Of a stretch of 64,000 nucleotides of DNA, positions 628 to 64,000 are shown in pieces. Source of the DNA: an uncultured Dehalococcoidaceae bacterium (lineage in GTDB: Bacteria > Chloroflexota > Dehalococcoidia > Dehalococcoidales > RBG-16-60-22); contig CAZLEY010000006.1 of assembly GCA_964558675.1 (NCBI GenBank), positions 15,043 through 79,042 on the forward strand. Reading direction: 5' to 3'. The notes under the pieces are model-generated. The model did no database searches. It was given only the letters and a program-made list of their open reading frames with translations, and was not told the origin of the DNA. Made by a program: the position numbers and the translations under genes. The first letter of the stretch is position 1, and every line of letters starts with the position of its first letter.

Positions 628-629
628 TA

Positions 630-8500: not shown

Positions 8501-8551
8501 TTCTTTCCCTCCTTAGAGTATCCATCTGGTTATTTCTTGCATCAACAAGCA

Positions 8552-17720: not shown

Positions 17721-17767
17721 GTGATGTTTCTGTGAACTTTCATAAATCTTCTGTGATATTAATGTGA
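17721..17767 (+). promoter_or_regulatory. Four helically phased GTGA direct repeats (two as TTCTGTGA) upstream of the second HTH gene
   Basis: GTGA at 17721, 17732, 17753 and 17764 (spacings 11/21/11 bp). TTCTGTGA occurs at 17728-17735 and 17749-17756. The same 8-mer recurs at 38042-38049 and 32140-32147. Confidence 0.4.
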
Positions 17768-17881
17768 TTTAGCCCCAATATACTTCAAATGTACCAAGCA
17801 CTGCTAGCAACGATTATTTTGACAGTTCCGATTTTTCGACCAGGCAACCGATAAGGCAACCAAGTAAAAGGAGTAATAAGT

Positions 17882-18106
17882 TTGCAGAACGAATCTGAAC
17901 AGTGGATTCCTGAATATATCACTGTTGGTTTTATTGCCAAGCGTTGCGGTGTTAGCAATACGACTGTATTGCGGTGGATTACCACCGGGCAGCTACCGGC
18001 TTTCAGACTTCCCGGCGGTCATTACCGAATAGGGACGGAGAATTTCTCCGAATTTCTGACAAAATACAGCATGCCTGTACCAAACATATATATTGAAAAC
18101 CAGTAA
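17882..18106 (+). CDS. Small helix-turn-helix DNA-binding protein (excisionase/MerR-superfamily type), paralogue of 17319
   Basis: 74 aa. ITVGFIAKRCGVSNTTVLRWITTGQLPAFRLPGGHYRIGTENF. TTG start 9 nt after an AAAGGAG SD. Confidence 0.7.
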   Translation: MQNESEQWIPEYITVGFIAKRCGVSNTTVLRWITTGQLPAFRLPGGHYRIGTENFSEFLTKYSMPVPNIYIENQ

Positions 18107-18255
18107 AAAACACAGCAACAAGCAACATATGTAAAAACGATAACAGTGAGGTACAGGGAGATGATGTAACAAAAATATAACAACCGGTTTAGAAACTTAC
18201 AAAGAGGTGAACGATGAAAGCATTAAATACCCAAAACATTTCAGGAGGTGAAATT

Positions 18256-18621
18256 ATGCGTACGTTTTTGAAGAGAATACACCGAGAAAGTAAAGGCTTT
18301 ACCCTGGTAGAACTGCTTATCGTGGTCGCTATTCTGGGGGTACTGGCGGCGGTAGTCCTGCCCAATGTTACCGGGCTTGCCGGTGAGGGGCAGACCGAAG
18401 CTGCCAAGGCCGAGCTGGTAACTGTCCAGACAGCCATGGACACGATGATGGCAAAGACAGCTAAAACCTCAGTTACGGCCACCTCGGCAACCAGCAATAT
18501 GTCGGCATTCCCCACCGGTAACGTGCTGTACCCAACCTACCTGAGGACGGCGACAACCAAGGGTACATATTCCTGCAGCACTACCGGACTGGTGACACAG
18601 GCAACCACCGGTTATGAGTAG
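18256..18621 (+). CDS. pilA: Type IV pilin (prepilin-type N-terminal cleavage/methylation domain); likely the major pilin
   Basis: MRTFLKRIHRESKG/FTLVELLIVVAILGVLAAVVLPN is the canonical G/FTLxE motif. Start set to ATG 18256, 6 nt after an AGGAGGTG SD; the track start at 18214 is upstream of the SD. Confidence 0.85.
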   Translation: MRTFLKRIHRESKGFTLVELLIVVAILGVLAAVVLPNVTGLAGEGQTEAAKAELVTVQTAMDTMMAKTAKTSVTATSATSNMSAFPTGNVLYPTYLRTATTKGTYSCSTTGLVTQATTGYE

Positions 18622-18806: not shown

Positions 18807-21800
18807 ATGAAGGTAAGAACAAAACTGATTATCGGGTTTTCGGCGATTGTGGTCCTTTTATGGCTGATTGTTTCCTATGCCGGGAACAATTACGGAAACT
18901 TGAAGCAACAATTCACAGCCGTTGAAGAGGACATCATTCCCAACACAATGGACCTGACTGAAGTGGAAAAGGCAGCTGACGAAGCGTACCGCCAGTCAAT
19001 GGATTATATCCTTTACGATATCACCGAAGCGAAACAGAGCGCCATATACCAGATAAACTACCTCAATGATATCAGGAAAAAGTACGTATCTTATGAAGAC
19101 GACATTGAAAACGAGGAATATATAGCCAACCAGGAACTGATATCCAGAATAAACATGTTAATACTGGGCATTATCACAGTAATGAACCTCAAGGAAATGG
19201 GGGGCAGCCGTGATCAGATACTTGCCCAGGACCGCAATACAAGCCTTCCGGCACTTCTCGACCTGGAGCAGTTTATCAACGAACAAAAAGCAGCCAGTAT
19301 TGACGAACTGGCAGTGGTAAAAACCAACTTCCGGCAAGCTTATACCACAGGTATAAACTGGCTTTTCATTAGTGCCGGTCTGATTACACTTATTGCCGTA
19401 GCGGCCTCATTTCTTGTGACGAGGTCGATTACGCGGCCACTTCATGCCCTGCATAAAGGCACCGAGATAATCGCCAGGGGTAACCTGGATTACAAAGTCG
19501 GCACCAGGGCACAGGATGAAATAGGACAGCTGTCACGAGCTTTCGACCAGATGACCTTGAATCTGACGAGCAGCATGACATCAATAGACAACCTTAACCA
19601 GGAAATTGCCGAGCGCAAGCGGGCGGAGGAAGCCTTGCGGGAGTCCGAGGAGAAGTTCTCCAAAGCCTTCCGTTCCAATCCCGATTCAGCCTCTATTACC
19701 ACGTTTAAAGATGGCATATTTATTGACGTCAATGAAAGTTTTACACGCGACAATGGCTACACCCGTGAAGAGGTGATTGGCCAAAGCTCAAGAGAACTCG
19801 ATATCTGGGCAAAGCCAGAAGAGCGCGACAGAATATTAAAGAAGCTAAGGAAACATGGCAGAGTTGCATATGAGGAATACAGTGCCCGCACAAAGTCAGG
19901 CGAGATACGCACGATGTTGTTCTCTGCCGAGCCAATCAATGTTGCCGGCGAAGCCTGCATAATCGCCGTAACGACCGATATTACCGACCGTAAAAAGAGG
20001 GAGCAGCTACAACACGATGAGAATCACGTGCTTACCCTCTTAGGGCAGGGGGCAGAATTAAGCGAACTGCTGGATGCTATAGTGCGTTTGGGTGAAGAGC
20101 ATGATACTTCTATCAAAGGCTCTGTGCTGCTTTTTGATTCGTCAAAAGACTGCCTGGTTCAAGCGTCCGGCCCAAGTTTACCCGATGATTACAAAGAACT
20201 ATTAAAAGACGGGCTACCTATCGGGCCGAATGTGGGTTCCTGTGGAACCGCAGCGTACCTGAAGGAGCGGGTAATCGTCACAGATATTAAGAACAGCCCT
20301 CTTTTTAAACCTTTTGAGGAAGCTGTTAAGCGGTCAACCAACAACGGCCTGCTTTCCTGCTGGTCGCAACCTATCATCTCATCCAGCGGAGAGCTACTCG
20401 GCACCATAGCTAACTATAGCAATAAGGTGGGTGAGCCGGATGCCGACAACCTCAGGGTGCTGGAGTGGTCAGCTAGTATTGCTGCTATCGCCATCGAGCG
20501 CAAGCGGGCGGAGGAAGCCCTGGCTAACGAAGCGATCTGGCGGCGCATCCTGATCGAGCAGTCCCTAGACGGGATAGTTATCCTCGATGGGGACTCCAAA
20601 GTGTATGAGGCGAACCAGCGATTTGCCGAGATGCTCGGGTACTCCACCGAGGAAGTCCGTGAACTCCACACATGGGATTGGGATACTCAGTGGACACGTG
20701 AGGAACTGCTCGAGATGGGACGGAATGTCGACGAGACCGGTTACCACCTGGAGACATACTGGCAGCGTAAGGATGGTACGACCATTGACGTTGAAATCAG
20801 CATCAATGGAGCAACCATCGCAGGAAAGAAGTTTATCTTCTGTGTGTGCCGCAACATAACCGAGCGCAAGCAGGCGGAGATGGAGTTAATAACCAATGAA
20901 GAGCGCTTCCGCCTTATTGCGGATAACGCCACCGACATGATCTCGCGTATTCAAATGGCTCCGACAATAAGAACAGACTACGTGAGCCCATCCTGTTTTA
21001 ATATTACCGGCTACAAGCAGGAAGAGTTCTATGCCGACCCTAATCTCGGACTGGAAATGCTCCATCCAGATGATAGAGAGTTCTTCAATAAACACATCAT
21101 GTCTGGTAACAAAAAAAACCAGAAACCCATCACTATAAGAATGTTCCGTAAAGACGGCAGCATAATCTGGATAGAGCAGACCCATGCGATGATTTTTGAT
21201 GAGCACGGCGAACCTTCAGCCATGCACCTCATCGCCCGTGACATCACCGCGCGCAAGCAGGCCGAGGAGGCCCTGCGGGAGTCCGAACAGAAGTTCTCTA
21301 AAGCCTTCCGTTCCAGTCCCAATACCATTGCTATTACCACACTCAAGGATGGCGAATTCATTGAAGTCAATGATAGTTTCACCAACATTACCGGCTATAC
21401 CCGCAAAGAGGTAATCGGCCGTAATTCAAAGGACATTGATATCTGGGCAAAGGCTGAGGACCGCGACAGAATGCTCAAAATGCTGCAAGACAAAGGCCAG
21501 GTTTATAATGAAGAATTCGACTTCCGTGTAAAGTCAGGTGAGATACGAACCTGGTTGTTCTCCGCCGAGCGGATAGACATAGGCGGCGAATTATGTATTA
21601 TTTCCATGACAATTGACATCACCGAGCTCAAGAGGGCACAGACAGCCCTAAGCGAGAGCGAGGAGAAATTCTCCAGAGCCTTTTCCTCCAGTCCCGATAT
21701 AATCACTATCGTCCACATTAAAAGTAATACATTCATTGAGGTGAACGATAATTATATTAATTTTACCGGCTACACCCGTGATGAAGTTATTGGCCACACT

Positions 21801-52472: not shown

Positions 52473-53807
52473 ATGGAAGATAACCGGGCAGAGCTGACCC
52501 CAAAGGAAAAAAGAGAGCAGCGCTTTAACTGGTGGCTCAATAACGACGGCATCAATTTCATCAATGACGAGGCCAAGAAGGCCTACAGGACAAGAGTACA
52601 AAGGATGATTGACGCTTATAACGTCGAGGAGCCGGATAGAGTGCCCGTTTCCTTGCCCATCGGGGCTATGCCTGCCTATTATTACGGTACCGACTATTAC
52701 ACCTGCATGTATGACTATGACAAGCTTATAGCGGCATGCGACAAGTTCAATAAGGACTTCGCCGACCTGGATATATTCGTCGGTCCCGGTATGTTCCTTC
52801 CGGGAAGAGTCTACGACCTTCTCGATTATAAGCTGTATAAGTGGCCGGGGCACGGGCTTTCCAAGAGTGCCGAGGGAATACAGTTTGTCGAAGGCGAGTA
52901 TATGAAGGCCGACGAATACGACGCCCTGATAAAGAACCCTTCTGATTTCTGGATGAGGGTCTACATGCCCCGTATCTTCGGGGCTTTTGAGTCGTGGAAT
53001 ATGTTGTTACCGTGGACGAATATCATCGAGCTGCCGTCCATGTACTTCTTCCCGTTTATGATGCCCCAGGTGCAGGCCTCCATGCAGACGCTTATTGATG
53101 TCGGTAATGAGCTTGGAAAATATATGAAAGTTATGGGAGAATTCGGCCGAAAGGGACTCGAAGCCGGATTCTCGTCAGCGATGGGGGCTTTTGCCAAAGC
53201 GCCGTTCGATGTCATCGGTGATACGCTCAGAGGCACGCAAGGGATATTCTTTGACATGTTCCGCCAGCCGGACAAGCTCCTCGAAGGCATCGAAGTAATC
53301 ACGACCCTTATGATTGATTCCGTGATATCCTCGGTTAATGCCTCCCGGGGCCTGATGGCGATGTTCCCTCTGCATAAAGGCGCCGACGGCTGGATGTCCG
53401 ACGAGCAGTTCAATACCTTCTACTGGCCGTCCCTGAAGAAAGTCATCAACGCCCTGGTTGACGAAGGTATCCTGGTATACCTGTTCGCCGAGGGAAGCTA
53501 TAATACACGATTGGAAAGCGTTAACGAATTCCCCAAAGGTGCTGTCACCTGGCTTTTCGACAAGACGGATATGGCCAGGGCCAAGAAAGTCATCGGTGAC
53601 AGGTGCTGTATCTCCGGGAACGTACCCACTTCGCTGATGATTACCGGCACACCAGAAGATGTTAAAGAATACTGCCGTAGGCTTATCGAAACCTGCGCCC
53701 CGGGTGGCGGTTATATCCTGGCCGGTGGCGCCCAGGTTGACAAAGGCAACCCGGAAAACCTGCGCGCTATGGTAGAGGCTGCTAGAGAATACGGCGTGTA
53801 CAAATAA
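52473..53807 (+). CDS. Uroporphyrinogen-decarboxylase-fold (URO-D / MtaA-CmuA-like) family protein, long form
   Basis: 444 aa. EEPDRVPVSLPIG near the N-terminus and a C-terminal GGGYILAGGAQVDKGNPENLRAMVEAAREYGVY, as in URO-D/MtaA family members. I see no obvious H-x-C zinc motif (YLFAEGSY at that position). Confidence 0.6.
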   Translation: MEDNRAELTPKEKREQRFNWWLNNDGINFINDEAKKAYRTRVQRMIDAYNVEEPDRVPVSLPIGAMPAYYYGTDYYTCMYDYDKLIAACDKFNKDFADLDIFVGPGMFLPGRVYDLLDYKLYKWPGHGLSKSAEGIQFVEGEYMKADEYDALIKNPSDFWMRVYMPRIFGAFESWNMLLPWTNIIELPSMYFFPFMMPQVQASMQTLIDVGNELGKYMKVMGEFGRKGLEAGFSSAMGAFAKAPFDVIGDTLRGTQGIFFDMFRQPDKLLEGIEVITTLMIDSVISSVNASRGLMAMFPLHKGADGWMSDEQFNTFYWPSLKKVINALVDEGILVYLFAEGSYNTRLESVNEFPKGAVTWLFDKTDMARAKKVIGDRCCISGNVPTSLMITGTPEDVKEYCRRLIETCAPGGGYILAGGAQVDKGNPENLRAMVEAAREYGVYK

Positions 53808-53810: not shown

Positions 53811-54365
53811 TTATGGTCGACCAGGCTTATTGCTCTCTAAGGGAGGAATGGCAGGTTGGTTGGAATCTCGTGATTTTTCCATGAGTTGAAGCACGTGTTT
53901 CCTGAACCTTCTCAAAATAGTCTGAAACGACTCCGCTTCTTCCTGGTCCAGGCACTGCATAGCCTGCGAAGCAATTGTGTGCCGAAGGGACATCGTTTGC
54001 TCCACCAGGTCCAGACCCTTCTCCGTTATGCTGACTTTTCTCAGTCGGCGGTCCCGTTTTGTACCGGAACTTCTGGTCAGTCCCAGCGACTCAAGACTGT
54101 CAACAGCTTTAGTGGTGGCATGTTTAGAGCGGGTTATCCGGTAGCTCAATTCGGTCGGTGTCAGCGTACCGCCACGTATTATCAAAATATGCAGGATGCT
54201 CATCTGGGTCCGATTCAGGCCGAATTTCCTAAGCTCGTTATCCAGATATTTGTTAACAATTTCGAATGTGTAGATAAAGGAAAGAAAGTTATCGAATCTC
54301 AAATCATTAGCCTGAACCCTGAGGCGCTTGGCTAATGAGTCCAGCCTTTCCGAGTGACCTTTCAC
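53811..54365 (-). CDS. MarR-family transcriptional regulator
   Basis: LNRTQMSILHILIIRGGTLTPTELSYRITRSKHATTKAVDSLESLGLTRSSGTKRDRR is a MarR wHTH. Start set to GTG 54365, 6 nt after an AAGGAG SD (track start 54434). It is divergent from the carboxylase-like operon. Confidence 0.8.
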   Translation of the reverse strand: MKGHSERLDSLAKRLRVQANDLRFDNFLSFIYTFEIVNKYLDNELRKFGLNRTQMSILHILIIRGGTLTPTELSYRITRSKHATTKAVDSLESLGLTRSSGTKRDRRLRKVSITEKGLDLVEQTMSLRHTIASQAMQCLDQEEAESFQTILRRFRKHVLQLMEKSRDSNQPAIPPLESNKPGRP

Positions 54366-54474
54366 AATAACTCCTTTGTGATAAAGAAGTGCCTTACACG
54401 ATGGTATTCTAACAAATACCGAAATAATTATCAAAAAGTATTATATGTTATATTCAATCATGTGATTGTAACAC

Positions 54475-54504
54475 TTGACTCTATTTTTTAATATATGATA
54501 TATA
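54475..54504 (+). promoter_or_regulatory. Candidate promoter of the carboxylase-like operon in the MarR-divergent region
   Basis: TTGACT (54475-54480), 18 nt, TATATA (54499-54504). It is embedded in the ATATATGATATATAT near-palindrome that could be the MarR operator. Confidence 0.35.
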
Positions 54505-54576
54505 TAATTGATTGGGAAATTCGAGTCTATCAAACAGCACGGTTTTGTATGATTTAAACAAGCGGGAGGAGCAAAG

Positions 54577-56628
54577 ATGTCTTTCATGATTGGCGTTGAC
54601 ACCGGAGGCACATTTACGGACGGTTTTTTCACCCGTAACGGAGACCTGAGAACAGTCAAAGTATTAACAACTCCTCACGACCTTACGGTCTGTTTGGTGG
54701 ATTGCATAAAAGAAGGCGCCGAACAATTCGGAGTCCCGGTGCAGGAAATGCTGGCGGATACCGACATTGTAAGGTATTCAACCACGGTCAGTGTTAATAC
54801 GATAATTCAGAGAACGGGAGCGAAAATCGGGCTACTTGTCAGTCAGGGTTTTAAGGACTCGCTATATTCCAGTGATAAAAGCGCCATTGAGCCGATATTC
54901 TCTTTCATAGCCAGGGATATGATTGCCGAGGTAATTGAGGAGATTGATGACAAAGGCAAAATAGTAAAACCTGTCGATACCGAGGACCTGATTGTCAAGA
55001 TGCAGAATATGACGGATATGGGCGCCCGTGCCATTGTCGTCAGTCTCAATAATTCACATATTAATCCCGAGCATGAAAAACAGATAAGGGCGATAATAAA
55101 GGAACAGTCCCCCAGCTATTTCCTGGGGAGTATTAGAGTACTTCTGGCCTCTGATATCTCCGACCAGCCGGATGCCTTTTATCGCACCAATGCGGCGGTA
55201 ATAAACGGGTATATACACGATGCCATGGTCAGGTATCTATACCGGTCGGAGGATGACCTGAAAGCAAATCTTTACACGCGGCCATTAATGGTAGGGCATT
55301 CGCATGGCGGCACCGCCAGAGTGGCCAAGACAAGGGCTATCGATACTTATTCGTCCGGTCCCGTGCTGGGTGTATTTGGAGCCCAGCTGGTGGGGAAGGC
55401 CCATGGCTTCTCTGAGGTAATAGCCGTCGACGTAGGCGGCACCAGCCTGGATATCGGCATAATCCGTGGCGGCAGCCATAACTACACTCTCACTCCCATA
55501 ATCTCCGACCTTCCTGTCAGCGTACCCATGATTGTTACCCACTCGGTGGGTATAGGTGGTTGTTCAATTGTCAAGCTGAATAACTCAGGTGGCGTTCAGG
55601 TCGGACCCAGAAGCGCCGGCGCCAGCCCGGGCCCGGCATGCTTTAACCGCGGGGGAATGGAACCTACCGTTACGGACGCAGACGTTGCCCTGGGCTTTAT
55701 TGACCCCAATAATTTCCTCGGAGGCAAGGTGCTGCTTGATAAAGACAAAGCCATAGCATCAATCAAGAGAAGAATCGCTGACCCTATGAAAATCAGCGTT
55801 GAGGAAGCAGCCTGCCTGATAAAAGAAACCACCGAAAGGAATATTCGAGAGGAACTGCTACATTTCTTGAAAGAGAAAGGTATTGAGACAGATAAATTGA
55901 GCGATTTCGCCCTGGTAGCCTACGGTGGCGGCGGCCCGACCCGCTACGGCGGTTTCGTCAGCGGTTTGGAATTCGGCCAGATACTGACAAGCCCCTATGC
56001 CTCAACTTTCTGCGCCTTCGGTTTTTCCACAACAGATTTGCTTCATCGCTATTCAAAATACCTGCCGCTTATCCTCTTTGACGGCGTTGACTATCTGAAG
56101 GACTATAAGAGGCTTAACGAGACCGTAACGCAGCTAATGGATGTGGCCAGGAGAGACATCGAGGGGGAGGGTTTCTCCTCCGATAACGCTGGTTATAACC
56201 TCGAGCTCATCGGGGACAACGGCCTGGCAGAGCATAACGTAAAGCTGGAAAAGACACAAATAAGCTCTTTGGAAGAAATGAAAAATATATGTGCTCAATT
56301 CGGTAGACCCGGTGGGCAGGGTCCGGCGAAAATCGCCATTTCCACCATTATCCTGAATGCCACCGTACCAATGCCGCACTACGAACTGAAGGCCAGTCCA
56401 CTGGCCGGCGAAGACCCCGGCGGCGCGTTAAGAGGAGAGCGGGATGTATACTGGTCACGTGAAGTCGGTTACCGCAAGACCCCCATTTATAATAGAGAGT
56501 TACTGGTGCCGGGCAACAGAGTTGTCGGTCCGGCGGTTGTCGAAGCCAAAGACACAACCTATGTCATACCGGCCAATAAGTTTTATTACATCAGCGAGTA
56601 TTCACACGGCGTTTTAGGGGAGGTTTAA
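54577..56628 (+). CDS. Hydantoinase A / oxoprolinase-family ATPase subunit (acetone/acetophenone carboxylase HyuA-type), paralogue 1
   Basis: 683 aa. N-terminal IGVDTGGTFTDGFF, with a second ASKHA motif VIAVDVGGTSLDIG. GGAGGAG SD. Confidence 0.85.
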   Translation: MSFMIGVDTGGTFTDGFFTRNGDLRTVKVLTTPHDLTVCLVDCIKEGAEQFGVPVQEMLADTDIVRYSTTVSVNTIIQRTGAKIGLLVSQGFKDSLYSSDKSAIEPIFSFIARDMIAEVIEEIDDKGKIVKPVDTEDLIVKMQNMTDMGARAIVVSLNNSHINPEHEKQIRAIIKEQSPSYFLGSIRVLLASDISDQPDAFYRTNAAVINGYIHDAMVRYLYRSEDDLKANLYTRPLMVGHSHGGTARVAKTRAIDTYSSGPVLGVFGAQLVGKAHGFSEVIAVDVGGTSLDIGIIRGGSHNYTLTPIISDLPVSVPMIVTHSVGIGGCSIVKLNNSGGVQVGPRSAGASPGPACFNRGGMEPTVTDADVALGFIDPNNFLGGKVLLDKDKAIASIKRRIADPMKISVEEAACLIKETTERNIREELLHFLKEKGIETDKLSDFALVAYGGGGPTRYGGFVSGLEFGQILTSPYASTFCAFGFSTTDLLHRYSKYLPLILFDGVDYLKDYKRLNETVTQLMDVARRDIEGEGFSSDNAGYNLELIGDNGLAEHNVKLEKTQISSLEEMKNICAQFGRPGGQGPAKIAISTIILNATVPMPHYELKASPLAGEDPGGALRGERDVYWSREVGYRKTPIYNRELLVPGNRVVGPAVVEAKDTTYVIPANKFYYISEYSHGVLGEV

Positions 56629-56630
56629 TC

Positions 56631-56984
56631 ATGACCAATATGCGTATTACGGAAACCCTGGAAATTGACCTGGAGAAAGAGATGTGGTGCTGCAATCGAT
56701 GCCACGCAGAAATATGTTCCGCCCGAGAGCCTTACGTCAGGGGCTGCCTGGTTTACGAAAGGCCGGCTGATGAAATATACGGGCCGCCGATTCCGGTCAA
56801 ACAGGATTCCGCCAGCATTTCCTACGCGCCGGACCCGGACTTCATGAGGATAATCGAATTTTATTGCCCGGAATGCGGAGCAATAATAACGATTCAGTAT
56901 TTGCCGCCGGGCCATCCTATTGTTACAGAAATAGAACTTGATATTGACAAGCTGAAGGAAAGGGCTTCCCAGCAGCCGAAATGA
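56631..56984 (+). CDS. Acetone-carboxylase gamma-subunit-like small zinc protein
   Basis: 117 aa. WCCNRCHAEIC ... FYCPECGAIITIQYLPPGHP (CxxC + CxxC). It starts 2 nt after the HyuA-type gene. Confidence 0.75.
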   Translation: MTNMRITETLEIDLEKEMWCCNRCHAEICSAREPYVRGCLVYERPADEIYGPPIPVKQDSASISYAPDPDFMRIIEFYCPECGAIITIQYLPPGHPIVTEIELDIDKLKERASQQPK

Positions 56985-57961
56985 ATTCGAAAACGGCATT
57001 CAAAAACACTTACAGACTGATGAACAGTGAAAGACCTGTATTTATTCCATTTGTTTATGGACTTGCCGCCAAACTGGAGCAAATCCCGCTGGCGGAAATA
57101 ACGTCCGACGCCAGTTACTACACTCATTCGTTAGAGGATGCCTGTAATTTGTTCAAATATGACGGAGTAGTCAATAACTTCGACGCTACCATCGAGGCTG
57201 AGCTCTTCGGTTGCGAACTGGAGTGGCCCGATGATTACGCTGCCCCGAGAATCACCAGTTGCAGCCGGGCTGAACTGCGGGAAATAGACCCAGCAGAAAG
57301 CAGCCGCATCCAGATTCTACTGGAAACTACCAAACGTACCGTCATGTCAAAGGGCAAAGATGTTGCTGTCATTGGTATTCTCACCGGACCCTGCTCACTG
57401 GTGAAGACCCTGATGATTAATAAAAGCGATGACACAGAAAACGCCATCGCCCTGGCCGGGAGCTTGCTTACGAAACTGGTTAAAAATTTATGTGAATTAA
57501 GGGTTGACGCTATATTTTTCAGGGAAGACCTTCTGGATAGCGGCTATCGTGACGAATTGCTGGCATATCCTAAACCCTACACGGACGCCTATACAACGCT
57601 GTTTAACCTGATTAAATACTATAACTGCTTCCCGGCGATTATCGTTAAAAACATGGAGACGGACTTCATTACCGAACTACACGAGATGATAAAACCAAAC
57701 GGGTTAATCCTGCTTGGCAAGAAAATTAGTGATGATGACATGGCACATTTGCAGAATTTGTCGGATTCCCTGAAAATCTCATTCGGTCTGCCGCTCGCAT
57801 TAGGGAATCAGGCTGAATTAAAGGAACAGTTTGCCATCATCAGCCAGTTCATTAACAAACATAAACCTACCGGATTTTTCTATGTCAGTGAAGGCGAAGT
57901 TCCGTATGATATGCCTCTGGAGATTCTTCACGATTTAATCGCAGAAATGCAGAACGTATAA
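56981..57961 (+). CDS. URO-D-fold (MtaA/uroporphyrinogen-decarboxylase-like) protein embedded in the carboxylase operon; probably non-canonical
   Basis: 326 aa. NFDATIEAELFGCELEWPDDYAAPRI, VAVIGILTGPCSLVKTL, VDAIFFREDLL and FYVSEGEVPYDMPLEILHDLIAEM align with the URO-D/MtaA pattern. The usual H-x-C(G) zinc site reads AIIVKNME. ATGA overlap with the gamma gene. Confidence 0.55.
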   Translation: MNSKTAFKNTYRLMNSERPVFIPFVYGLAAKLEQIPLAEITSDASYYTHSLEDACNLFKYDGVVNNFDATIEAELFGCELEWPDDYAAPRITSCSRAELREIDPAESSRIQILLETTKRTVMSKGKDVAVIGILTGPCSLVKTLMINKSDDTENAIALAGSLLTKLVKNLCELRVDAIFFREDLLDSGYRDELLAYPKPYTDAYTTLFNLIKYYNCFPAIIVKNMETDFITELHEMIKPNGLILLGKKISDDDMAHLQNLSDSLKISFGLPLALGNQAELKEQFAIISQFINKHKPTGFFYVSEGEVPYDMPLEILHDLIAEMQNV

Positions 57962-57983
57962 AAAGCAACGCAGGAGGAAAAGG

Positions 57984-60119
57984 ATGGGATATATTATCAA
58001 TGTTGACGTCGGCGGCACATTTATGGACTTTTTTATAGCTAAAGGTGATAAATACATCACCACGAAGGTACCAACTACGGCTTACGAACTTGGAGTGGGG
58101 TTTATTAGAGGAATCGAGGAGTGTGCTGAGAAAGATGGCAAAACACTTGAAGAATTCCTTACCGAGACCGATGTCGTCAAGTACTGCACAACTATCGGTA
58201 CCAACATACTTATTGAGCATACAGGACCCAAACTGGGATTGATAACCACGCGCGGGTTTGAGGATACAATCTTCATAGGCAGGGGACGGCAGTGGGCAGA
58301 CGGCCTGCCTGCTTCGGACGTCCAGGATGTTACTTCGATTGAGAAGCCGGTGCCGCTCATCCCCCGCAAGCTGGTGGTAGGCGTTAGAGAGCGATTGGAC
58401 TATAGTGGCAATATCGTTATGCCGCTGGTAAAAGAGGATGTTCTGACACAGCTCAGATATCTGGTGGATAACGGCGTACGCGGCTTTGTGGTCAGCCTCT
58501 TATGGTCATTTATTAACCCGGTTCACGAAAGGCAGATAAGAAGCATTATCGAGGAGGAATTCCCGGAAGTCTACCTGGGTAATATGCCCATCATACTGTC
58601 GTCCGAGATATCACCAAAAGAGGGCGAATATGTCAGGACAATGACGGCGATAGTCAATGCCTATATTCATGTGGGGTTTGTCGAGCAGATATCCGCTTTA
58701 TGCAGTGACCTGCTTGACAATGGATATCAAAAGCCACTCCTCCTCTCCGACAACGTCGGTGGTTGCGCCAAAGTGGCCAGAACCAGGGCGATTGCTACCT
58801 ATGGGGCCAGTCCTGTCAGCGGACTCTGCGGGGCAGCCCGCCTGTGCAGCGGTGTCGGCCTTCCGAATGTCGTCTTTTGTGACACTGGCGGTACCAGCTT
58901 TGACATCGGACTCATTACTGATGGCAGTATTACCCACTATGACCTATACCCTACGGTTGACCGGTGGCGGACTCAAATAACGGCGATAAAAATAGCGTCA
59001 ATCGGCGCCGGCGGCGGTTCAATAGCCTGGTTGAATCCTTCACTGGGCAATCGCCTTGAGGTCGGGCCAGCCAGTGCCAAGTCCATGCCCGGCCCGGCAT
59101 GCTATGACTTGGGAGGGGAAAACCCCACTGCTACCGATGCCGACGTTGTTCTGGGCTATGTAAATCCGGATTACTTCCTGGGCGGCAAATTCAGGCTGAA
59201 TAAAGGGAAGGCAGTAAAGGCCTTGAAAGAGCTGGGAGAAAAGACCGGATGGGATGAGATGACCACCGCCATGATGATTAAGAAGGTAATTGACGCCAAG
59301 ATGGGGCAGGAGATTTTCAAAGAGGTAGCCCTTAAAGGGTACGAACCTTCAGAGTTCACCGTTTTCGCCGGCGGCGGCGCCGGCCCCGGGCACTGCTGTA
59401 GTGTGGCCGCCGCCTCCGAAATGAGTAAAATTATCGTCCCGCCGATGTCTCCCGTAGCAGGAGCCTATGGAGCGTCCACGCTGGACGTTGTTCACAGCTA
59501 CGAGAAGTCAAGAAACACCAGGCTGTTCGACTACGCCAAGGGGGCTTATTTCTCTGACTTCGACATTTTTAACTCCATTATTAACGAACTCAGAGAACTC
59601 GCCGTCAGGGATATCATACTCGAAGGATTTAAAGAGGAACAGGCGGCTTTCCGGCTGGAACTTGAGATGAGATACGGCATGCAGTGGCGCTATACACCCA
59701 TTGAGTCTCCTCTCCTGTTCATCAACAGCACCGAGGATGTGAAAAAGGTTTGTGACCGCTTTACGGAAGAGTTCAGCCGCCTCTACAGCGCTGAAGCCGC
59801 CTTTCCCCAGGGAGGTGTGGAAATCGAGACATACCGTCTCTTCGTACATCTGCCCCTGCCGCACTTCACGCTGACGCAACATGAAGCTGTTGGTGAAAAA
59901 ACCGCCAAAGCTGCCCTCAAGGGTCAGAGAGAAGCCTACTGGGAAAAACTCGGTGGATTTAAGAACACGAATATATACCAGTGGGACCTGCTGAGAGCCG
60001 GGAACGTAATAGAGGGTCCGGCGGTAATAGAATCAGACAACACCACGGCTGTTATTGAGCCGGACTGGACATTCACGATGGCCCCGGAACTCTACGGAAT
60101 GATTACGTACAATCAATAG
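57984..60119 (+). CDS. Hydantoinase A / oxoprolinase-family subunit, paralogue 2
   Basis: 711 aa. INVDVGGTFMDFFI and VVFCDTGGTSFDIG. AGGAGGA SD. Confidence 0.85.
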   Translation: MGYIINVDVGGTFMDFFIAKGDKYITTKVPTTAYELGVGFIRGIEECAEKDGKTLEEFLTETDVVKYCTTIGTNILIEHTGPKLGLITTRGFEDTIFIGRGRQWADGLPASDVQDVTSIEKPVPLIPRKLVVGVRERLDYSGNIVMPLVKEDVLTQLRYLVDNGVRGFVVSLLWSFINPVHERQIRSIIEEEFPEVYLGNMPIILSSEISPKEGEYVRTMTAIVNAYIHVGFVEQISALCSDLLDNGYQKPLLLSDNVGGCAKVARTRAIATYGASPVSGLCGAARLCSGVGLPNVVFCDTGGTSFDIGLITDGSITHYDLYPTVDRWRTQITAIKIASIGAGGGSIAWLNPSLGNRLEVGPASAKSMPGPACYDLGGENPTATDADVVLGYVNPDYFLGGKFRLNKGKAVKALKELGEKTGWDEMTTAMMIKKVIDAKMGQEIFKEVALKGYEPSEFTVFAGGGAGPGHCCSVAAASEMSKIIVPPMSPVAGAYGASTLDVVHSYEKSRNTRLFDYAKGAYFSDFDIFNSIINELRELAVRDIILEGFKEEQAAFRLELEMRYGMQWRYTPIESPLLFINSTEDVKKVCDRFTEEFSRLYSAEAAFPQGGVEIETYRLFVHLPLPHFTLTQHEAVGEKTAKAALKGQREAYWEKLGGFKNTNIYQWDLLRAGNVIEGPAVIESDNTTAVIEPDWTFTMAPELYGMITYNQ

Positions 60120-60157
60120 CTTAACTCAGGATTTGAATAACGAAGAGGAGGAAGGAA

Positions 60158-62242
60158 ATGCCAGGTGCGATAGATTATGAAATAGGTAAACGATTGCATC
60201 CAGAGCCTCCGACGGAAGAGGAACTCGAATATATGAAGGACATAGAACCCACTTCGGCGGGTATTTTCCTCCACAAGCTGCTTACGATAGTATCCGAGGG
60301 TAATGAGACTCTTGTAAAGCTTGGTGCCAGTACGGGATGTCGCTGGGGAGATACGTCCAGTGCCATTTATACCAGGTCAGGTGACAGCGCCGTCTGTGCG
60401 TCAGGTCTGTATTTCCACTCCGTGCTGGGCTCGACGGATGTCAAGTATATCATGAAGTACTGGTTGAATGAGCCAAGTGTCGGCGTCAGGCCAGGAGACG
60501 CATTCTTCTGTAACATGCCCTACATCCGCGGTACGCATCCTCCGGATATGGCCATCTATGCACCCATATTCTATAAAGATAAGCTCGTATGCTGGATTGG
60601 AGCCGTGGTCCACACCGGGGAATGTGGCGCCTGTGAACCCGGTGGTATGCCTACCGGCTCGAGGAGCATGTATGAAGAGGGAATACAGGTCCCTGCCCTG
60701 AAAATAGCTGAAAACTACAGATTGAAAGAAGACGTTATCAATTACTTTAACCATATGGTACGAGACCCGCGGGCCATGACCCTGGACATCAAGGCAAGAA
60801 TGGCCTGTTTGAGAGTGGTCGAGAAACGCCTGTTAGCTGTCATTGAAAAGGTGACACCTGAGTATATGACCGGGATTCTGAGGTATGTCATCAAAATTAC
60901 GGGCGAAGCAACCCGGATGCGTATCAGTCAATGGAATGACGGCAAGTACAGCTTTGTCCAGTTCATTGACGCCGTCGGTATATTTCAGCGACTGACCAAA
61001 GTTGCCGTCACACTGGAGAAGAAAGGCGACCACCTGTACTTCGATTATGAAGGTACTTCACCGGAGGTTTTTGACCGCGTGGCCAATTCCCCGGGAACGG
61101 GGGTCGTCGGCGTCAACACGGTTTACTTGCTGGGGCACCTGTTCTACGATTTACCTCATAATTCGGGTATACTGGAGCCAATGTCTTTCAAGATGCCACA
61201 GGGCACTATCGTCAATGCCAGCCGCGAGTCTCCCAAGGCTGGTTGCGCTTACGTCCACGAGGCAGGTTCCCTGGCCGTGCAGTACGTGCTTCAGAACGTG
61301 GTTTACGCCGCCAGCCCTGACCGGACCGAGTGCGCCGGTAACCGTGGTTTCGATACCCTGTCTTACGGTGGCGTCAACCAGTACGGAGAGCCATTTGCCG
61401 ATGCAGGCGCCGAGATGAACGGTATCGGGTTTGGCGCCAGAAGCTATAAAGACGGTGTGGACGTGGCCGGGGCCTACTTTGCCCCGATGACCTCCGAGCC
61501 GGGAGAGGTTGAAAGCCTGGAATCACACCTGCCGTTCCTGTACCTGTACCGTGGCTTCCATCAGGACAGCTGCGGCCACGGCAAATACCGTGGCGGCGTC
61601 GGCATGGACTACGCCGTTAAAATCCACGCCGTACCCAATGCTGCACTGGGCACTTGGGGATTTGGTTCCAAAATAACCCTGGCCCAGGGACTCTTTGGAG
61701 GCTACGGTGTTCCGGCACTGCCTTTCCTGGCGGTTTCCGGTTCCAATCTGAATGAAATGCTGCGTAATACGGATACCAATATTCCGGGTTCGGCCAGGAT
61801 GCTTTACCGGGAACAGGCTATTAAGGGTCATTACAGATTGAGAGGATATCCCTGCGTGGCCGAGTCTACCAAAGAAGGCGACCTGGTAGCCGGGGGCACC
61901 GGCGGCGGCGGCGGCTATGGCGACCCGATTGAGCGTGACCCATCAATGGTAATGAAAGACCTGGAAAAAGGGGCCATTTCACACTGGGCTGCCAGGAATG
62001 TTTATAAAGTTATCTATGACGAAAAGATACTGGCGGTCGATGAAGAAAAAACGAAGTCGCTGCGCGAGCAGGAAAGAAAGGATAGAAAGTCCAGGGGCAA
62101 GAAATACGCGGAATTTGAGAAAGAATGGTCGAAGAACAAACCCGGTGACGAGACTTTAGAGTTTTACGGCTCGTGGCCGGCACCTAAATATGAATCTTTC
62201 GATTATTGGGGTTACTGGCCGGGCGTGTCTGAAAATGAATAA
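60158..62242 (+). CDS. Hydantoinase B / oxoprolinase-family subunit (HyuB / carboxylase catalytic-type subunit)
   Basis: 694 aa. HyuB-family C-terminal GGTGGGGGYGDPIERDP motif. GAGGAGGA SD. Confidence 0.85.
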   Translation: MPGAIDYEIGKRLHPEPPTEEELEYMKDIEPTSAGIFLHKLLTIVSEGNETLVKLGASTGCRWGDTSSAIYTRSGDSAVCASGLYFHSVLGSTDVKYIMKYWLNEPSVGVRPGDAFFCNMPYIRGTHPPDMAIYAPIFYKDKLVCWIGAVVHTGECGACEPGGMPTGSRSMYEEGIQVPALKIAENYRLKEDVINYFNHMVRDPRAMTLDIKARMACLRVVEKRLLAVIEKVTPEYMTGILRYVIKITGEATRMRISQWNDGKYSFVQFIDAVGIFQRLTKVAVTLEKKGDHLYFDYEGTSPEVFDRVANSPGTGVVGVNTVYLLGHLFYDLPHNSGILEPMSFKMPQGTIVNASRESPKAGCAYVHEAGSLAVQYVLQNVVYAASPDRTECAGNRGFDTLSYGGVNQYGEPFADAGAEMNGIGFGARSYKDGVDVAGAYFAPMTSEPGEVESLESHLPFLYLYRGFHQDSCGHGKYRGGVGMDYAVKIHAVPNAALGTWGFGSKITLAQGLFGGYGVPALPFLAVSGSNLNEMLRNTDTNIPGSARMLYREQAIKGHYRLRGYPCVAESTKEGDLVAGGTGGGGGYGDPIERDPSMVMKDLEKGAISHWAARNVYKVIYDEKILAVDEEKTKSLREQERKDRKSRGKKYAEFEKEWSKNKPGDETLEFYGSWPAPKYESFDYWGYWPGVSENE

Positions 62243-62960
62243 AATTTACCCCAGCAGCAAGGAGGCTCTAGCTGATGTCTTTAGTGGCGCCACCATACTA
62301 TGCGGCGGCTTCGGCTGTGTAGGTGGTATGCCATCAACATTATTCCGGGCACTGGCTGAGCTGCCGGTAAAGAACCTGACTCTCGTCGGTAATGCGCCGG
62401 TACTCGGTATGGAAGCTCAACAAACTGCCGCCAGGACTATCCAGGTCCCGGAATCGTATGCCGATGGTTCATTGCTGTTAAGAAACGGCCAGGTAAGCAA
62501 ATTGATTGTTTCCGTACCGGCCATGGCCATATATCGAATGCAGGAGCCCTTCCCCATCGTCAAGGCTCTGCAGGATGGGCAGGACATCGATATTGAGCTC
62601 GTCGCTCAGGGAACCCTTGCCAAAAGGATAAAAGCCGCCAGAGAAGGCGTCCCTGCTTTCTACACTCGCACCGGTGTGGGAACGCTTCTCGAGAAGGGGA
62701 AAGAAGTCAGACAGATTGATGGTCAGGATTACCTGCTAGAATACGCCATCAAATCTGACTTCGCTATTATCTGGGCTTATAAAGCGGACCGTTACGGCAA
62801 TCTCGTCTACAAAGGTACTTCCCGTACCTTCAACGCAACGATGGCCGGAGCCGCTACCGTCACCGTTGCCGAGGTGGCGGAGGTGGTCGAGCTGGGGAAG
62901 CTGGACCCTGAGGCGGTGGCTACGCCCGGGATTTACGTAAACCGTGTCGTCAGGAGATAA
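62238..62960 (+). CDS. 3-oxoacid CoA-transferase subunit A
   Basis: MNKIYPSSKEALADVFSGATILCGGFG. ATG 62238 overlaps the HyuB stop (track start 62190 lies inside hyuB). Confidence 0.8.
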   Translation, partial: NKIYPSSKEALADVFSGATILCGGFGCVGGMPSTLFRALAELPVKNLTLVGNAPVLGMEAQQTAARTIQVPESYADGSLLLRNGQVSKLIVSVPAMAIYRMQEPFPIVKALQDGQDIDIELVAQGTLAKRIKAAREGVPAFYTRTGVGTLLEKGKEVRQIDGQDYLLEYAIKSDFAIIWAYKADRYGNLVYKGTSRTFNATMAGAATVTVAEVAEVVELGKLDPEAVATPGIYVNRVVRR

Positions 62961-62967: not shown

Positions 62968-63684
62968 ATGAGTATGCCAAAAGGTAGACTGGATGAGCAG
63001 ACTATAGCCATGCGTGTGGCCAGGGAATTTCAGGACGGGATGGTGGTTAATCTGGGGGGCGGTATACCGAGCCTGGCATGCAACTTCGTCGCTGAGGGCA
63101 GAGAGGTCCTGTTCCATACGGAGAATGGAGCGCTGGGCTATGGCGGCACGGCTTCAACGGAGGAAGTAGACTGGGACCTTTTCAACGCCAGCTTTCAGCC
63201 GGTTACCCCATCACCGGGCATGAGTTTCTTCGGCCATGACGAATCTTTCGGCATGATTACCGGCGGCCATGTTGATATCAGTGTCCTCGGGGCACTGGAG
63301 GTATCCGAGAAGGGTGACCTGGCTAATTGGGCGATAGGGAATATGGCTGACTATGATGGAGACGCCGTCGCCTGGATAAGGACGGGCAGGTTCCCCCCTG
63401 GTATCGGGGGAGCTATGGACCTTGCCGTGGGAGCCAAAAGGGTTATGGTAGCCATGATTCACACCACGAAAGATGGCAGCCCGAAGATTGTTAGAGAATG
63501 CAAGTACGAGTTGACGGCCCGGCAGTGCGTGTCGTTAATCTTTACTGATATGGCCGTTATCGAAGTTACACCGGCCGGACTGCTTTTAAAGGAAGTAGCC
63601 CCGGGGTTGACTCCGGACGACGTTCAGGCGGTAACCGAGCCGCAACTGATTATTGCCGACGATGTCAGGGAGATAGAGCTATAG
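62968..63684 (+). CDS. 3-oxoacid CoA-transferase subunit B
   Basis: MVVNLGGGIPS and the catalytic-Glu context HTENGALGYG. ATG 62968 follows an AGGAGA SD. Confidence 0.8.
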   Translation: MSMPKGRLDEQTIAMRVAREFQDGMVVNLGGGIPSLACNFVAEGREVLFHTENGALGYGGTASTEEVDWDLFNASFQPVTPSPGMSFFGHDESFGMITGGHVDISVLGALEVSEKGDLANWAIGNMADYDGDAVAWIRTGRFPPGIGGAMDLAVGAKRVMVAMIHTTKDGSPKIVRECKYELTARQCVSLIFTDMAVIEVTPAGLLLKEVAPGLTPDDVQAVTEPQLIIADDVREIEL

Positions 63685-63723: not shown

Positions 63724-64000
63724 ATGAAAAACAGAGTTCCGTTCAGGGAAGGCCTGTTTGAAGAGACTTCTGGAAAAGGGTCGTTGATAGGAGCCAGGTG
63801 CCGGCAGTGCGGACAGATAATCTTCCCGAGGAGAGAAGCATGCCTGAACTGCCTGGGTCAGGACCTGGAGCCTGTACGTCTGAGCCGGAATGGTAAACTC
63901 TACGCTTATACCATCGTGCATATGCCCAGTGAGCACTTTGAACCTCCCTATGCTATCGGCTGGATAGAACTCCCGGAGGGGATACGGATATTCAGCCAGA
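63724..64000 (+). CDS. DUF35-type Zn-ribbon/OB-fold protein, N-terminal part (runs off the window)
   Basis: Not in the track. ATG 63724 follows a TGAGGA SD. MKNRVPFREGLFEETSGKGSLIGARCRQCGQIIFPRREACLNCLGQDLEPVRLSRNGKLYAYTIVH has the rubredoxin-like CxxC..CxxC plus OB start, typical of the partner of SCP-x/thiolase-like enzymes. Confidence 0.65.
   Translation, partial: MKNRVPFREGLFEETSGKGSLIGARCRQCGQIIFPRREACLNCLGQDLEPVRLSRNGKLYAYTIVHMPSEHFEPPYAIGWIELPEGIRIFSQ

Follow-up and report, generated by a model that had tools for sequence, protein, structure and literature searches.

The window is the whole 64,000-nucleotide stretch of DNA that was analysed. Within it, five genes follow each other on the + strand (Table 1), encoding a HyuA-type protein of 683 aa, a gamma-like protein of 117 aa, a URO-D-fold protein of 326 aa, a second HyuA-type protein of 711 aa and a HyuB-type protein of 694 aa, referred to below as alpha', gamma, epsilon, alpha and beta respectively. 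This order was described in the initial annotation, and its coordinates and lengths proved exact. Near-zero or overlapping junctions around the gamma gene and divergence from a MarR gene had also been claimed, and both are present. Read directly from the sequence, the alpha' stop codon (TAA, 56626-56628) is separated from the gamma start codon (ATG, 56631) by the 2 nt 'tc', with GGGGAGG close upstream, and the gamma and epsilon genes share an ATGA overlap at 56981-56984. Pfam identifies Hydant_A_N/Hydantoinase_A/Hydant_A_C in both HyuA-type proteins (E 1e-70 and 3e-61), Acetone_carb_G (PF08882, 1.4e-24) in gamma, URO-D (8e-14) in epsilon and Hydantoinase_B (8e-95) in beta. The five-gene order was found again in ~25 independent loci, among which the identity of the 326-aa protein falls as low as 38%, and the arrangement is therefore not due to chance. 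The region 54577-62242 is a genuine five-gene, co-oriented and tightly packed operon.

Table 1. Features of the carboxylase-like locus and its surroundings, in window positions.
Feature	Position	Strand	Identification
MarR-family regulator (184 aa, metagenome gene call)	53811-54365	-	Pfam MarR_2/MarR; divergent from operon
Divergent intergenic region, AT-rich	54366-54576		Sequence reading
alpha' gene (683 aa)	54577-56628	+	ApcA-type HyuA paralogue
gamma gene (117 aa)	56631-56984	+	ApcB-type Zn-finger protein
epsilon gene (326 aa)	56981-57961	+	ApcE homologue, URO-D/MtaA-type alpha/beta barrel
alpha gene (711 aa)	57984-60119	+	ApcC-type HyuA
beta gene (694 aa)	60158-62242	+	ApcD-type HyuB
3-oxoacid CoA-transferase subunit A	62235-62960	+	TIGR02429, 223 bits (cutoff 128.5)
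3-oxoacid CoA-transferase subunit B	62968-63684	+	TIGR02428, 250.6 bits (cutoff 243.55)
DUF35 (zf-ChsH2/OB_ChsH2_C) gene, 5' part	~63724-64000	+	Cut by window end

The longest MarR reading frame reaches 54434 (53811-54434), and a MarR gene is also found upstream in eight related loci. The region between it and alpha' contains a ribosome-binding site (GGGAGG, 54564-54569) and a weak AT-rich palindrome (54483-54520), and no convincing match to a + strand sigma-70 promoter was found within 54366-54576. This region is presumed to be the site of promoter and operator. The MarR protein would probably repress the operon until the ketone or the ketoacid appears.

The operon extends past the beta gene, a point absent from the first reading. 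The reading frame of CoA-transferase subunit A opens at 62190, but its probable start is at 62235 (MNKIYPSS), giving an 8-nt overlap with the end of beta; its homologues have 241-245 aa. For subunit B the gene call gives 238 aa, and the longest reading frame opens at 62944. The DUF35 gene is followed on the source contig, outside the window, by a thiolase of 381 aa (DUF35 16744-17154 and thiolase 17159-18304 in the coordinates of source-contig locus L001, to which 46980 is added to give window positions). The thiolase scores 319 bits to archaeal-type acetoacetyl-CoA thiolases in NCBIfam, and the DUF35 protein and thiolase score almost equally to BbsA and BbsB (benzoylsuccinyl-CoA thiolase). 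About 25 Dehalococcoidia-type loci conserve the entire nine-gene module, alpha'-gamma-epsilon-alpha-beta-CoAT(A)-CoAT(B)-DUF35-thiolase.

Comparison with structurally characterised proteins (phmmer against the PDB) places the large subunits with acetophenone carboxylase (Apc) rather than acetone carboxylase (Acx). Alpha scores 630 bits against Apc 5l9w_B, compared to 292 for Acx, 286 for N-methylhydantoinase and 271 for caprolactamase, while alpha' scores 452 against ApcC, 326 against ApcA and no more than 286 against others. The best NCBIfam matches are ApcC for the 711-aa protein and ApcC/ApcA for the 683-aa protein, with identities to the Aromatoleum subunits of 43% (ApcC) and 31% respectively. 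In a neighbour-joining tree, alpha and alpha' group with Apc alpha and alpha', leaving Acx-beta and CapA outside, in 95/100 bootstraps. The 683-aa protein pairs with ApcA in 96/100 and the 711-aa protein with ApcC in 77/100; the alpha' proteins as a whole form one clade in 94/100, and the two paralogues of the window were sisters in 0/100. Judged from sequence, the 683-aa protein is orthologous to ApcA (alpha'), and the 711-aa protein corresponds to ApcC (alpha). Alpha carries RERLDYSG at residue 135, where alpha' has IEEIDDKG instead. ATP motifs were found in both (DTGGTFTD, DVGGTS and SPGP in alpha'). Only one of the seven proposed substrate-pocket residues of Apc alpha is identical in the 711-aa protein, and the other six differ.

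The same picture was obtained for beta, which scores 404 bits against Apc 5l9w_A, 148 against Acx alpha, 111 against N-methylhydantoinase and 106 against caprolactamase, and has ApcD as its best NCBIfam match (34% identity to the Aromatoleum subunit). In the neighbour-joining tree of beta the position of Acx-alpha is unstable, outside the Apc-type betas in only 25/100 bootstraps. Comparison with the Mn ligands of Acx (PMC5543143) indicates that beta retains the metal-site residues D65, H127, D130 and H152. Gamma scores 110 bits against Apc 5l9w_C and 25 against Acx gamma, with ApcB as best NCBIfam match (51% identity). All four of its zinc cysteines (Cys21, Cys24, Cys79 and Cys82) are kept, being invariant across the homologues compared, ApcB included. 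Weidenweber et al. 2017 (PMC5214803) recognise Apc by four cysteines in gamma, an R/KERiDsxG fingerprint found only in alpha, ATP motifs in both alpha and alpha', and subunit lengths. The locus has the four cysteines, the alpha-only fingerprint, both sets of ATP motifs, and lengths of Apc type, not of Acx or hydantoinase type.

Epsilon was compared with Apc epsilon, for which the structure 9FOU is available. ApcE is its best NCBIfam match (2.4e-15), and 9FOU is its sole phmmer match in the PDB (2.3e-11). A family profile gives 1.9e-16 for 9FOU and 7.8e-8 for MtaA. The structure model is confident (pLDDT 94), and Foldseek ranks the 9FOU chains top (E 7e-15), with MtaA and URO-D behind. Identity to Aromatoleum ApcE is ~17%. 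The 326-aa protein and Apc epsilon itself are distant homologues, and genuine Apc epsilon therefore also has the URO-D fold. Across the homologues compared, no Cys or His that could form an MtaA-type Zn site is invariant; the invariant polar residues are D68, E72, R181, E182 and D183, some of which are shared by Aromatoleum ApcE.

We conclude, with a probability of about 80%, that the product of the locus is an ATP-dependent ketone carboxylase of the Apc branch, built from five subunits and independent of biotin, which catalyses the opening step of a self-contained pathway from ketone to acyl-CoA. The initial annotation had proposed a five-subunit carboxylase for a ketone or related substrate, of acetophenone- rather than acetone-carboxylase type. 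This is supported, as all five Apc subunit families are matched, each by a wide margin, and the fifth-subunit role suggested for the URO-D-fold protein can be stated more strongly than before. All five proteins nevertheless score below the NCBIfam Apc equivalog cutoffs (13-52% of cutoff), and two ATP per carboxylation would be costly for a presumably strict anaerobe, which counts against the assignment. The low identities, the altered gene order and pocket residues, the unstable beta tree and the use of a CoA ligase after Apc in Aromatoleum point the same way. To our knowledge only one Apc has been characterised so far, and the hydantoinase/ketone-carboxylase family also contains ATP-dependent hydrolases; we therefore infer function at such a distance.

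A mechanism can be proposed by homology with Apc and Acx, with stoichiometry likewise taken by analogy. Alpha, an ASKHA kinase docked on beta, is presumed to be the ketone kinase, and would transfer phosphate from ATP to the enol form of a methyl(ene) ketone. Alpha', the presumed bicarbonate kinase, would use a second ATP to convert bicarbonate to carboxyphosphate. Beta would form the dimeric core with its conserved Asp/His/Asp/His metal site; the equivalent site in acetone carboxylase is where the C-C bond is formed. Gamma may clamp beta as a structural Cys4 Zn finger, and epsilon, with its URO-D fold lacking a Zn site, may serve as an essential accessory subunit. The beta-ketoacid product would be activated by the co-transcribed ScoAB/PcaIJ-type CoA-transferase, and then split by the DUF35/thiolase pair to acyl-CoA and acetyl-CoA.

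A cyclic-amide hydrolase of hydantoinase, oxoprolinase or caprolactamase type, also ATP-dependent, would share the HyuA and HyuB domains; several close homologues carry the JGI name 'N-methylhydantoinase A/B', and the NCBIfam scores are 368-413 bits for CapA and 160 bits for CapB. It is very improbable that the operon encodes such an enzyme instead of a carboxylase. The hydrolases have two subunits only, lack gamma and have a beta of ~580 aa (PMC5214803), whereas the locus combines two HyuA paralogues with gamma and epsilon, and its beta has 694 aa. Scores and trees point to Apc, and a co-transcribed 3-oxoacid CoA-transferase and thiolase suit a beta-ketoacid product. It is also unlikely that the 326-aa protein is an independent methyltransferase or decarboxylase within the operon, given that ApcE is its best match by sequence, profile and fold, that its family lacks the invariant Cys/His of MtaA, that its gene is translationally coupled to gamma through the ATGA, that its homologues remain linked to Apc-type clusters in four different gene positions and orders, and that Aromatoleum Apc requires epsilon for activity (PMC5214803). 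An independent enzyme would fit the Pfam URO-D match, the weak MtaA/CmuA matches, the protein's own set of invariant residues, only some of them in ApcE, and several Apc-type clusters that have no epsilon.

The substrate could about as well be a small aliphatic ketone as an aryl methyl ketone. One specific suggestion, which is possible but falls short of even odds, is that an Apc-type architecture carboxylates acetone or another short aliphatic ketone, acetoacetate being converted to two acetyl-CoA by the ScoAB-type transferase and thiolase; this differs from the preferred reading in substrate only, not in enzyme type. Earlier metagenomic studies (Hug 2013; Wasmund 2016) proposed acetone use for similar 'hyuABC' operons of Dehalococcoidia in which the downstream genes are the same. 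The CoA-transferase clears the 3-oxoacid (Sco/PcaIJ) family cutoffs, the thiolase resembles acetoacetyl-CoA thiolases, the Apc alpha pocket is poorly kept, and aromatic-pathway genes do not consistently flank the module. Against acetone, every subunit is much nearer to Apc than to Acx, the DUF35/thiolase pair scores nearly as well to BbsA/BbsB, and acetone would give a poor net yield of ATP. In addition, one related locus (L002) adjoins a phenylphosphate carboxylase beta subunit (505 bits, cutoff 469) and PEP-synthase-like and vinylphenol-reductase-like proteins.

The ketone carboxylase proposed here is related to a known enzyme, ApcABCDE of Aromatoleum aromaticum EbN1 (PDB 5L9W for the core complex, 9FOU for epsilon), but is divergent and rearranged. 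The two share the same five subunit families with matching lengths, alpha/alpha' orthology, the gamma Cys4 site, the R/KERxDxxG fingerprint in alpha only, intact ATP motifs in both kinase-type subunits, the beta Asp/His/Asp/His site, a URO-D-fold epsilon, and CoA-ester activation of the beta-ketoacid as the next step. They differ in gene order (A-B-E-C-D, that is alpha'-gamma-epsilon-alpha-beta, against A-B-C-D-E in Aromatoleum), in sequence (31-51% identity, ~17% for epsilon, all below the equivalog cutoffs), in the six changed pocket residues, and in having a CoA-transferase in place of benzoylacetate-CoA ligase, a DUF35/thiolase pair within the operon and a MarR regulator. A further difference is the host, an uncultured member of the Dehalococcoidia that is presumably anaerobic.

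AcxABC (5M45, 5SVB) is homologous and likewise carboxylates ketones with ATP and without biotin; it has a gamma Zn-finger subunit and a conserved HyuB-type metal site, and is followed in acetone degraders by 3-oxoacid CoA-transferase and thiolase. However, it has one HyuA-type subunit, lacks alpha' and epsilon, has a gamma of 168 aa and a HyuB-type subunit of 776 aa, and hydrolyses one ATP to AMP + 2 Pi; compared with their scores against Apc, those of the window proteins against Acx are 2- to 4-fold lower. Caprolactamase CapAB (6YRA), N-methylhydantoinase (7HK5) and 5-oxoprolinase share the HyuA/HyuB folds and ATP-dependent carbonyl activation, but are two-subunit or fused hydrolases without gamma, alpha' or epsilon and with a shorter beta, and are clearly more distant. 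Finally, members of the URO-D/MtaA superfamily (uroporphyrinogen decarboxylase and methylcobamide:CoM methyltransferase) have the same barrel fold as epsilon (TM ~0.75) and a common sequence motif in the N-terminal half, but epsilon lacks their conserved His/Cys Zn ligands, is nearer to ApcE than to any of them, and always occurs within HyuA/HyuB/gamma clusters.

Five genes, for a HyuA-type, a gamma-like, a URO-D-fold, a second HyuA-type and a HyuB-type protein, divergent from a MarR gene, had been described in the initial annotation between positions 54577 and 62242, and the layout was found to be exactly this: all five reading frames lie on the forward strand, and the MarR gene points away from them. 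In terms of subunits the order is alpha'-gamma-epsilon-alpha-beta. The tight junctions noticed around the gamma gene are a spacer of 2 nt after alpha' and an ATGA overlap of 4 nt with epsilon. About 25 independent loci share this gene order, with identities of the 326-aa protein as low as 38%, and the cluster is therefore not a chance arrangement. It is not the canonical order apcABCD(E) of acetophenone carboxylase (Apc), which is alpha'-gamma-alpha-beta-(epsilon), and the Apc-type clusters in other loci show at least four different gene orders.

Positions of the carboxylase genes and of other features, in the window and in related loci (L numbers)
Feature	Position	Strand	Description
HGD-D gene	630-1790	-	2-hydroxyacyl-CoA dehydratase/benzoyl-CoA-reductase-type D-component; adjoins enolase-superfamily gene
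Flavoenzyme trio	5691-10018	-	FAD_binding_4 / CCG / FAD_binding_4 (GlcDEF-like); 45 kb from cluster
URO-D-family gene	52473-53807	+	444 aa; Pfam match spans C-terminal half only
alpha' (HyuA-type)	54577-56628	+	683 aa; full three-domain HyuA architecture (Pfam)
gamma	56631-56984	+	117 aa; Acetone_carb_G (Pfam)
epsilon	56981-57961	+	326 aa; URO-D (Pfam)
alpha (HyuA-type)	57984-60119	+	711 aa; full three-domain HyuA architecture (Pfam)
beta (HyuB-type)	60158-62242	+	694 aa; Hydantoinase_B (Pfam)
DUF35 gene	starts ~63724	+	cut by the window end; source contig
L002, before cluster	1-6673		PEP-utilizer/PPDK_N genes, phenylphosphate carboxylase beta, UPF0261, LpdD chaperone, UbiX-type flavoprotein
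L002, after cluster	19148-20521		vinylphenol-reductase-like flavoprotein
L003, before cluster	873-5213	+	FAD_binding_4 / CCG / FAD_binding_4 trio, directly upstream
Orphan gamma genes (L044, L046, L049, L050, L054, L055, L059, L061, L069, L070, L072)	~10001-10330 in most		Acetone_carb_G

Beyond beta, the source contig (JGI metagenome 3300031651) carries further genes of the operon, for CoA-transferase A and B, a DUF35 protein and a thiolase, followed by a Peripla_BP_6-type ABC transporter. Both CoA-transferase subunits exceed the cutoffs of the 3-oxoacid CoA-transferase families (TIGR02429, TIGR02428); the true start of subunit B is downstream of the GTG start of its longest open reading frame. 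The nine-gene module is kept in most loci of the window's clade. The encoded route would convert ketone, bicarbonate and ATP to a beta-ketoacid, then to a beta-ketoacyl-CoA, and finally to acyl-CoA and acetyl-CoA. A promoter and operator search of the region between MarR and alpha' gave no convincing forward-strand sigma-70 match, and one weak AT-rich palindrome only. The named relatives are MAGs of Dehalococcoidaceae, Dehalococcoidales and Chloroflexota, plus a few bins labelled Desulfobacterota or Firmicutes.

The cluster had been proposed to be of the acetophenone- rather than the acetone-carboxylase (Acx) type, and this is supported, since all five subunits are present and the best match of each is an Apc subunit. 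The best NCBIfam models are, in gene order, ApcC/ApcA, ApcB, ApcE, ApcC and ApcD. BLAST identities are 43% for alpha, 34% for beta, and 31% to ApcA and 36% to ApcC for alpha', while gamma and ApcB are 51% identical. Pairwise scores of beta are 384-404 bits to Apc, compared to 148-163 to Acx. None of the five proteins reaches its NCBIfam Apc equivalog cutoff (NF042960, NF042974-NF042977), which is the score at or above which the same function can be assumed.

Bit scores of the window proteins against all PDB sequences, and their NCBIfam scores beside the Apc equivalog cutoffs
Protein	Apc	Acx	N-methylhydantoinase	Caprolactamase	NCBIfam score/cutoff
alpha'	452 (Apc-alpha), 326 (Apc-alpha')	281	237	286	482/1500 and 376/1250
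gamma	110 (Apc-gamma)	25	no match	no match	130/250
epsilon					57/450
alpha	630 (Apc-alpha, 5l9w_B)	292	286	271	670/1500
beta	404 (Apc-beta)	148	106	111	431/1500

Published criteria distinguish the Apc type from both Acx and the hydrolases (Weidenweber et al. 2017, PMC5214803). The subunit lengths in the window (beta 694, gamma 117, alpha 711 and alpha' 683 aa) agree with those of Apc, where beta has about 670-685 residues (Acx about 776, hydantoinase-type hydrolases about 580) and gamma about 128 (Acx about 168) (PMC5214803). The R/KERiDsxG fingerprint is distributed as in Apc: alpha has RERLDYSG at residue 135, and alpha' has IEEIDDKG there. This pattern, with the fingerprint in alpha but not in alpha', is repeated across the fetched loci. 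The ASKHA ATP motifs (PHOSPHATE 1, PHOSPHATE 2 and ADENOSINE) read DTGGTFTD, DVGGTS and SPGP in alpha', and DVGGTFMD, DTGGTS and MPGP in alpha. The gamma protein had been expected to carry the zinc site of its relatives, and it does: the Zn-finger cysteines of Apc-gamma, Cys22, 25, 75 and 78 (PMC5214803), are all kept as C21, C24, C79 and C82, and are invariant in an alignment that includes ApcB. The Hg/metal site of Apc-beta (Asp65, His123, Asp126 and His148), which is equivalent to the catalytic Mn ligands Glu89, His150, Asp153 and His175 of Acx (PMC5543143), is kept in the window beta as D65, H127, D130 and H152.

Neighbour-joining trees with 100 bootstraps were made from PDB-aligned reference sequences and the alpha, alpha' and beta proteins of 78 genome loci. 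The loci had been retrieved with an alignment of gamma; the Aromatoleum apc locus was absent from the 80 loci kept by the genome scan, and the reference sequences were transcribed from PDB alignments, with lengths that agree with the reported ranges. In the HyuA tree, 96 of 100 bootstraps join the 683-aa protein to ApcA and 77 join the 711-aa protein to ApcC; none makes the two window proteins sisters (0/100). All alpha' proteins form a single clade (94/100), and the Apc-type alpha and alpha' proteins stand apart from Acx-beta and from CapA, the HyuA-type subunit of caprolactamase (95/100). These groupings indicate an old duplication into alpha and alpha', with one orthologue of each in the window. 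The expectation that the large subunits would fall with the carboxylases was thus upheld for alpha and alpha', which lie in the Apc branch, but not clearly for beta: its tree, calculated with Kimura distances, places Acx-alpha outside the Apc-type betas in only 25 of 100 bootstraps, and the assignment of beta therefore rests on the large gap in pairwise and HMM scores.

The 326-aa protein was compared with the epsilon subunit of Apc, as the initial annotation had advised, and proves to be homologous to it. Its sole PDB sequence match is 9FOU, 'acetophenone carboxylase epsilon subunit' (phmmer, E 2.3e-11), and a profile of 34 homologues matches 9FOU at 1.9e-16, compared to 7.8e-8 for MtaA. ApcE is also the best NCBIfam model (2.4e-15). 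The predicted structure is confident (pLDDT 94.3, pTM 0.93), and in a Foldseek search with this model the first three ranks are chains of 9FOU (TM 0.73-0.76), followed by MtaA-like methyltransferases and uroporphyrinogen decarboxylases. Identity to 9FOU in the structural alignment is about 17%. Taken together, the sequence, profile, NCBIfam and Foldseek results indicate that the genuine Apc epsilon is a URO-D-fold protein and that the window protein is a distant homologue of it. No paper on 9FOU was found in the searchable literature.

MtaA and CmuA methyltransferases have a conserved His/Cys/Cys site that binds zinc. There is no invariant or near-invariant cysteine or histidine among the 34 epsilon homologues, and the family thus lacks a zinc site of the MtaA type. 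The NCBIfam scores of the MtaA-type models, 26-40 bits where the cutoffs are 235-600, also speak against a methyltransferase of this kind. The 444-aa URO-D-family protein encoded directly upstream, convergent with MarR, was also considered as a paralogue of epsilon or an extra subunit, and was discarded, since no similarity to epsilon could be detected (BLASTP E 2.1, hhalign probability 0.3%); it is not kept beside the cluster in the related loci inspected.

An exhaustive search with the epsilon profile gave 917 representatives (50% identity level) at E<=1e-3, 84 of them at E<=1e-30; the best 150 of the 917 have about 300-340 residues when full-length. Epsilon forms a distinct subfamily of moderate size. 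In 2017 close orthologues were known only from Nevskia and Rubrobacter (PMC5214803). Well over one third of the Apc-type loci retrieved in our survey have an epsilon. A core of P23, E74, G77, P89, R109, G136, P137, E182 and N209 is common to the epsilons of other clusters, whether the gene follows beta, lies between beta and alpha', or precedes alpha'. Most homologues retain D68, which Aromatoleum ApcE and two actinobacterial loci have lost. R181 and D183 are confined to the Dehalococcoidia-type clade. The occurrence of epsilon with Apc-type clusters in four gene positions, with these conserved core residues, provides comparative material on its role.

A small aliphatic and an aryl ketone are about equally plausible as substrate. 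The proposed acetophenone pocket of Apc-alpha (L81, F281, N282, P285, I333, Q344 and T345) is T, Y, G, P, V, K and I in the window alpha, so that only the proline is identical (1/7). This lack of conservation in the pocket favours a small aliphatic ketone, as do the Sco-type CoA-transferase downstream and the resemblance of the thiolase to archaeal-type acetoacetyl-CoA thiolase; Dehalococcoidia operons have also been read as 'acetone carboxylase' before (PMC3971608, PMC4959651). An aryl ketone is favoured by the place of the operon in the Apc branch, by comparable scores with BbsA and BbsB for the DUF35 protein and thiolase, and by the related locus L002 (NCBI GCA_964526655.1, in a bin labelled Desulfobacteraceae), where the cluster is set among a phenylphosphate carboxylase subunit and PEP-synthase-like and vinylphenol-reductase-like proteins.

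The phenylphosphate carboxylase beta subunit of L002, encoded in the group directly before the cluster, scores above its equivalog cutoff. Such a phenolic context was found in L002 only, and no aromatic-pathway genes lie near the cluster among the other genes of the window. Among 102 flanking proteins from 22 loci of the clade, the only recurrent families were MarR (8), SDR (4) and Peripla_BP_6 (4). The HGD-D gene is distant from the cluster, at the other end of the window. The window also has a GlcDEF-like trio, and the same trio adjoins the cluster in locus L003; the two may possibly be linked.

It is rather unlikely, in our judgement, that within the clade epsilon would be more than a loosely bound helper, namely a stoichiometric subunit, perhaps also catalytic, of the URO-D type (decarboxylase fold). 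Such a subunit would bind the activated ketone or CO2/carboxyphosphate and join in C-C bond formation, in an enzyme whose ketone class is not acetophenone. Hints in this direction are the translational coupling of gamma and epsilon by the ATGA overlap, polar residues that are invariant in the clade and sit at the C-terminal ends of barrel strands (D68, E72 and R181-E182-D183), and the six of seven pocket positions that differ in alpha. D68 is in an 'FD...EA..G' motif that we take to be the region of the URO-D catalytic Asp86.

Some loci have a different composition. SAR202 and other Dehalococcoidia MAGs (L030, L032-L035, L037-L039, L043, L045, L047, L051) have the order thiolase-(DUF35)-gamma-alpha-beta-alpha'; no epsilon is detectable in these loci, and in the neighbour-joining tree their alphas branch apart from the main clade of Apc alphas. 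Orphan Acetone_carb_G genes, about 52% identical to the window gamma, occur in MAGs of Alphaproteobacteria and Defluviicoccus. There is no HyuA or HyuB gene within 10 kb of them in any of the 11 loci, which suggests that the gamma Zn-finger domain is also used outside carboxylases. One of them (L050) has as neighbours a family III CoA-transferase, a Rieske/VanA_C oxygenase, an AMP-binding ligase and an OpuAC transporter. Two Apc-type gene sets stand side by side in Paenibacillus naphthalenovorans PR-N1 (L073) and in a Desulfomonilaceae locus (L081). The former, alone among the 78 loci, comes from a cultured organism and could give experimental access to Apc-like enzymes.

Uncultured Dehalococcoidia widely possess the five-subunit form with its recognisable epsilon, encoded in a compact module of nine genes that would lead from a ketone to acyl-CoA. 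In automated annotation and in earlier metagenomic papers, operons of this type are called 'acetone carboxylase' or 'N-methylhydantoinase', and epsilon is given as 'hypothetical' or 'URO-D family'. The public names of these exact proteins are likewise inconsistent ('N-methylhydantoinase A', 'acetone carboxylase gamma subunit', occasionally 'acetophenone carboxylase'), and epsilon is nameless, hypothetical or URO-D family. Correcting the labels would give better metabolic (carbon-cycling) predictions for a dominant sediment lineage. No published account of an Apc-type enzyme in Chloroflexota was found in the searchable literature. To our knowledge only one Apc-type carboxylase has been characterised so far.

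The operon encodes a known kind of enzyme with the same five subunits, and is not a new kind of system. What is modestly new is the conserved alternative gene order with its gamma-epsilon coupling, the divergent epsilon, the different CoA-activation step, and the wide occurrence in Dehalococcoidia. Apc hydrolyses 2 ATP to 2 ADP in a reaction that depends on ketone and bicarbonate and requires epsilon. Acx has a three-gene acx cluster, with one HyuA, one HyuB and a long gamma (168 aa), whereas the window has two HyuA paralogues, an epsilon and a gamma of 117 aa, with much lower scores to Acx. Hydantoinases, oxoprolinases and caprolactamases have two-gene hyuAB clusters with no gamma, and the window differs from all of these in having gamma, alpha' and epsilon.
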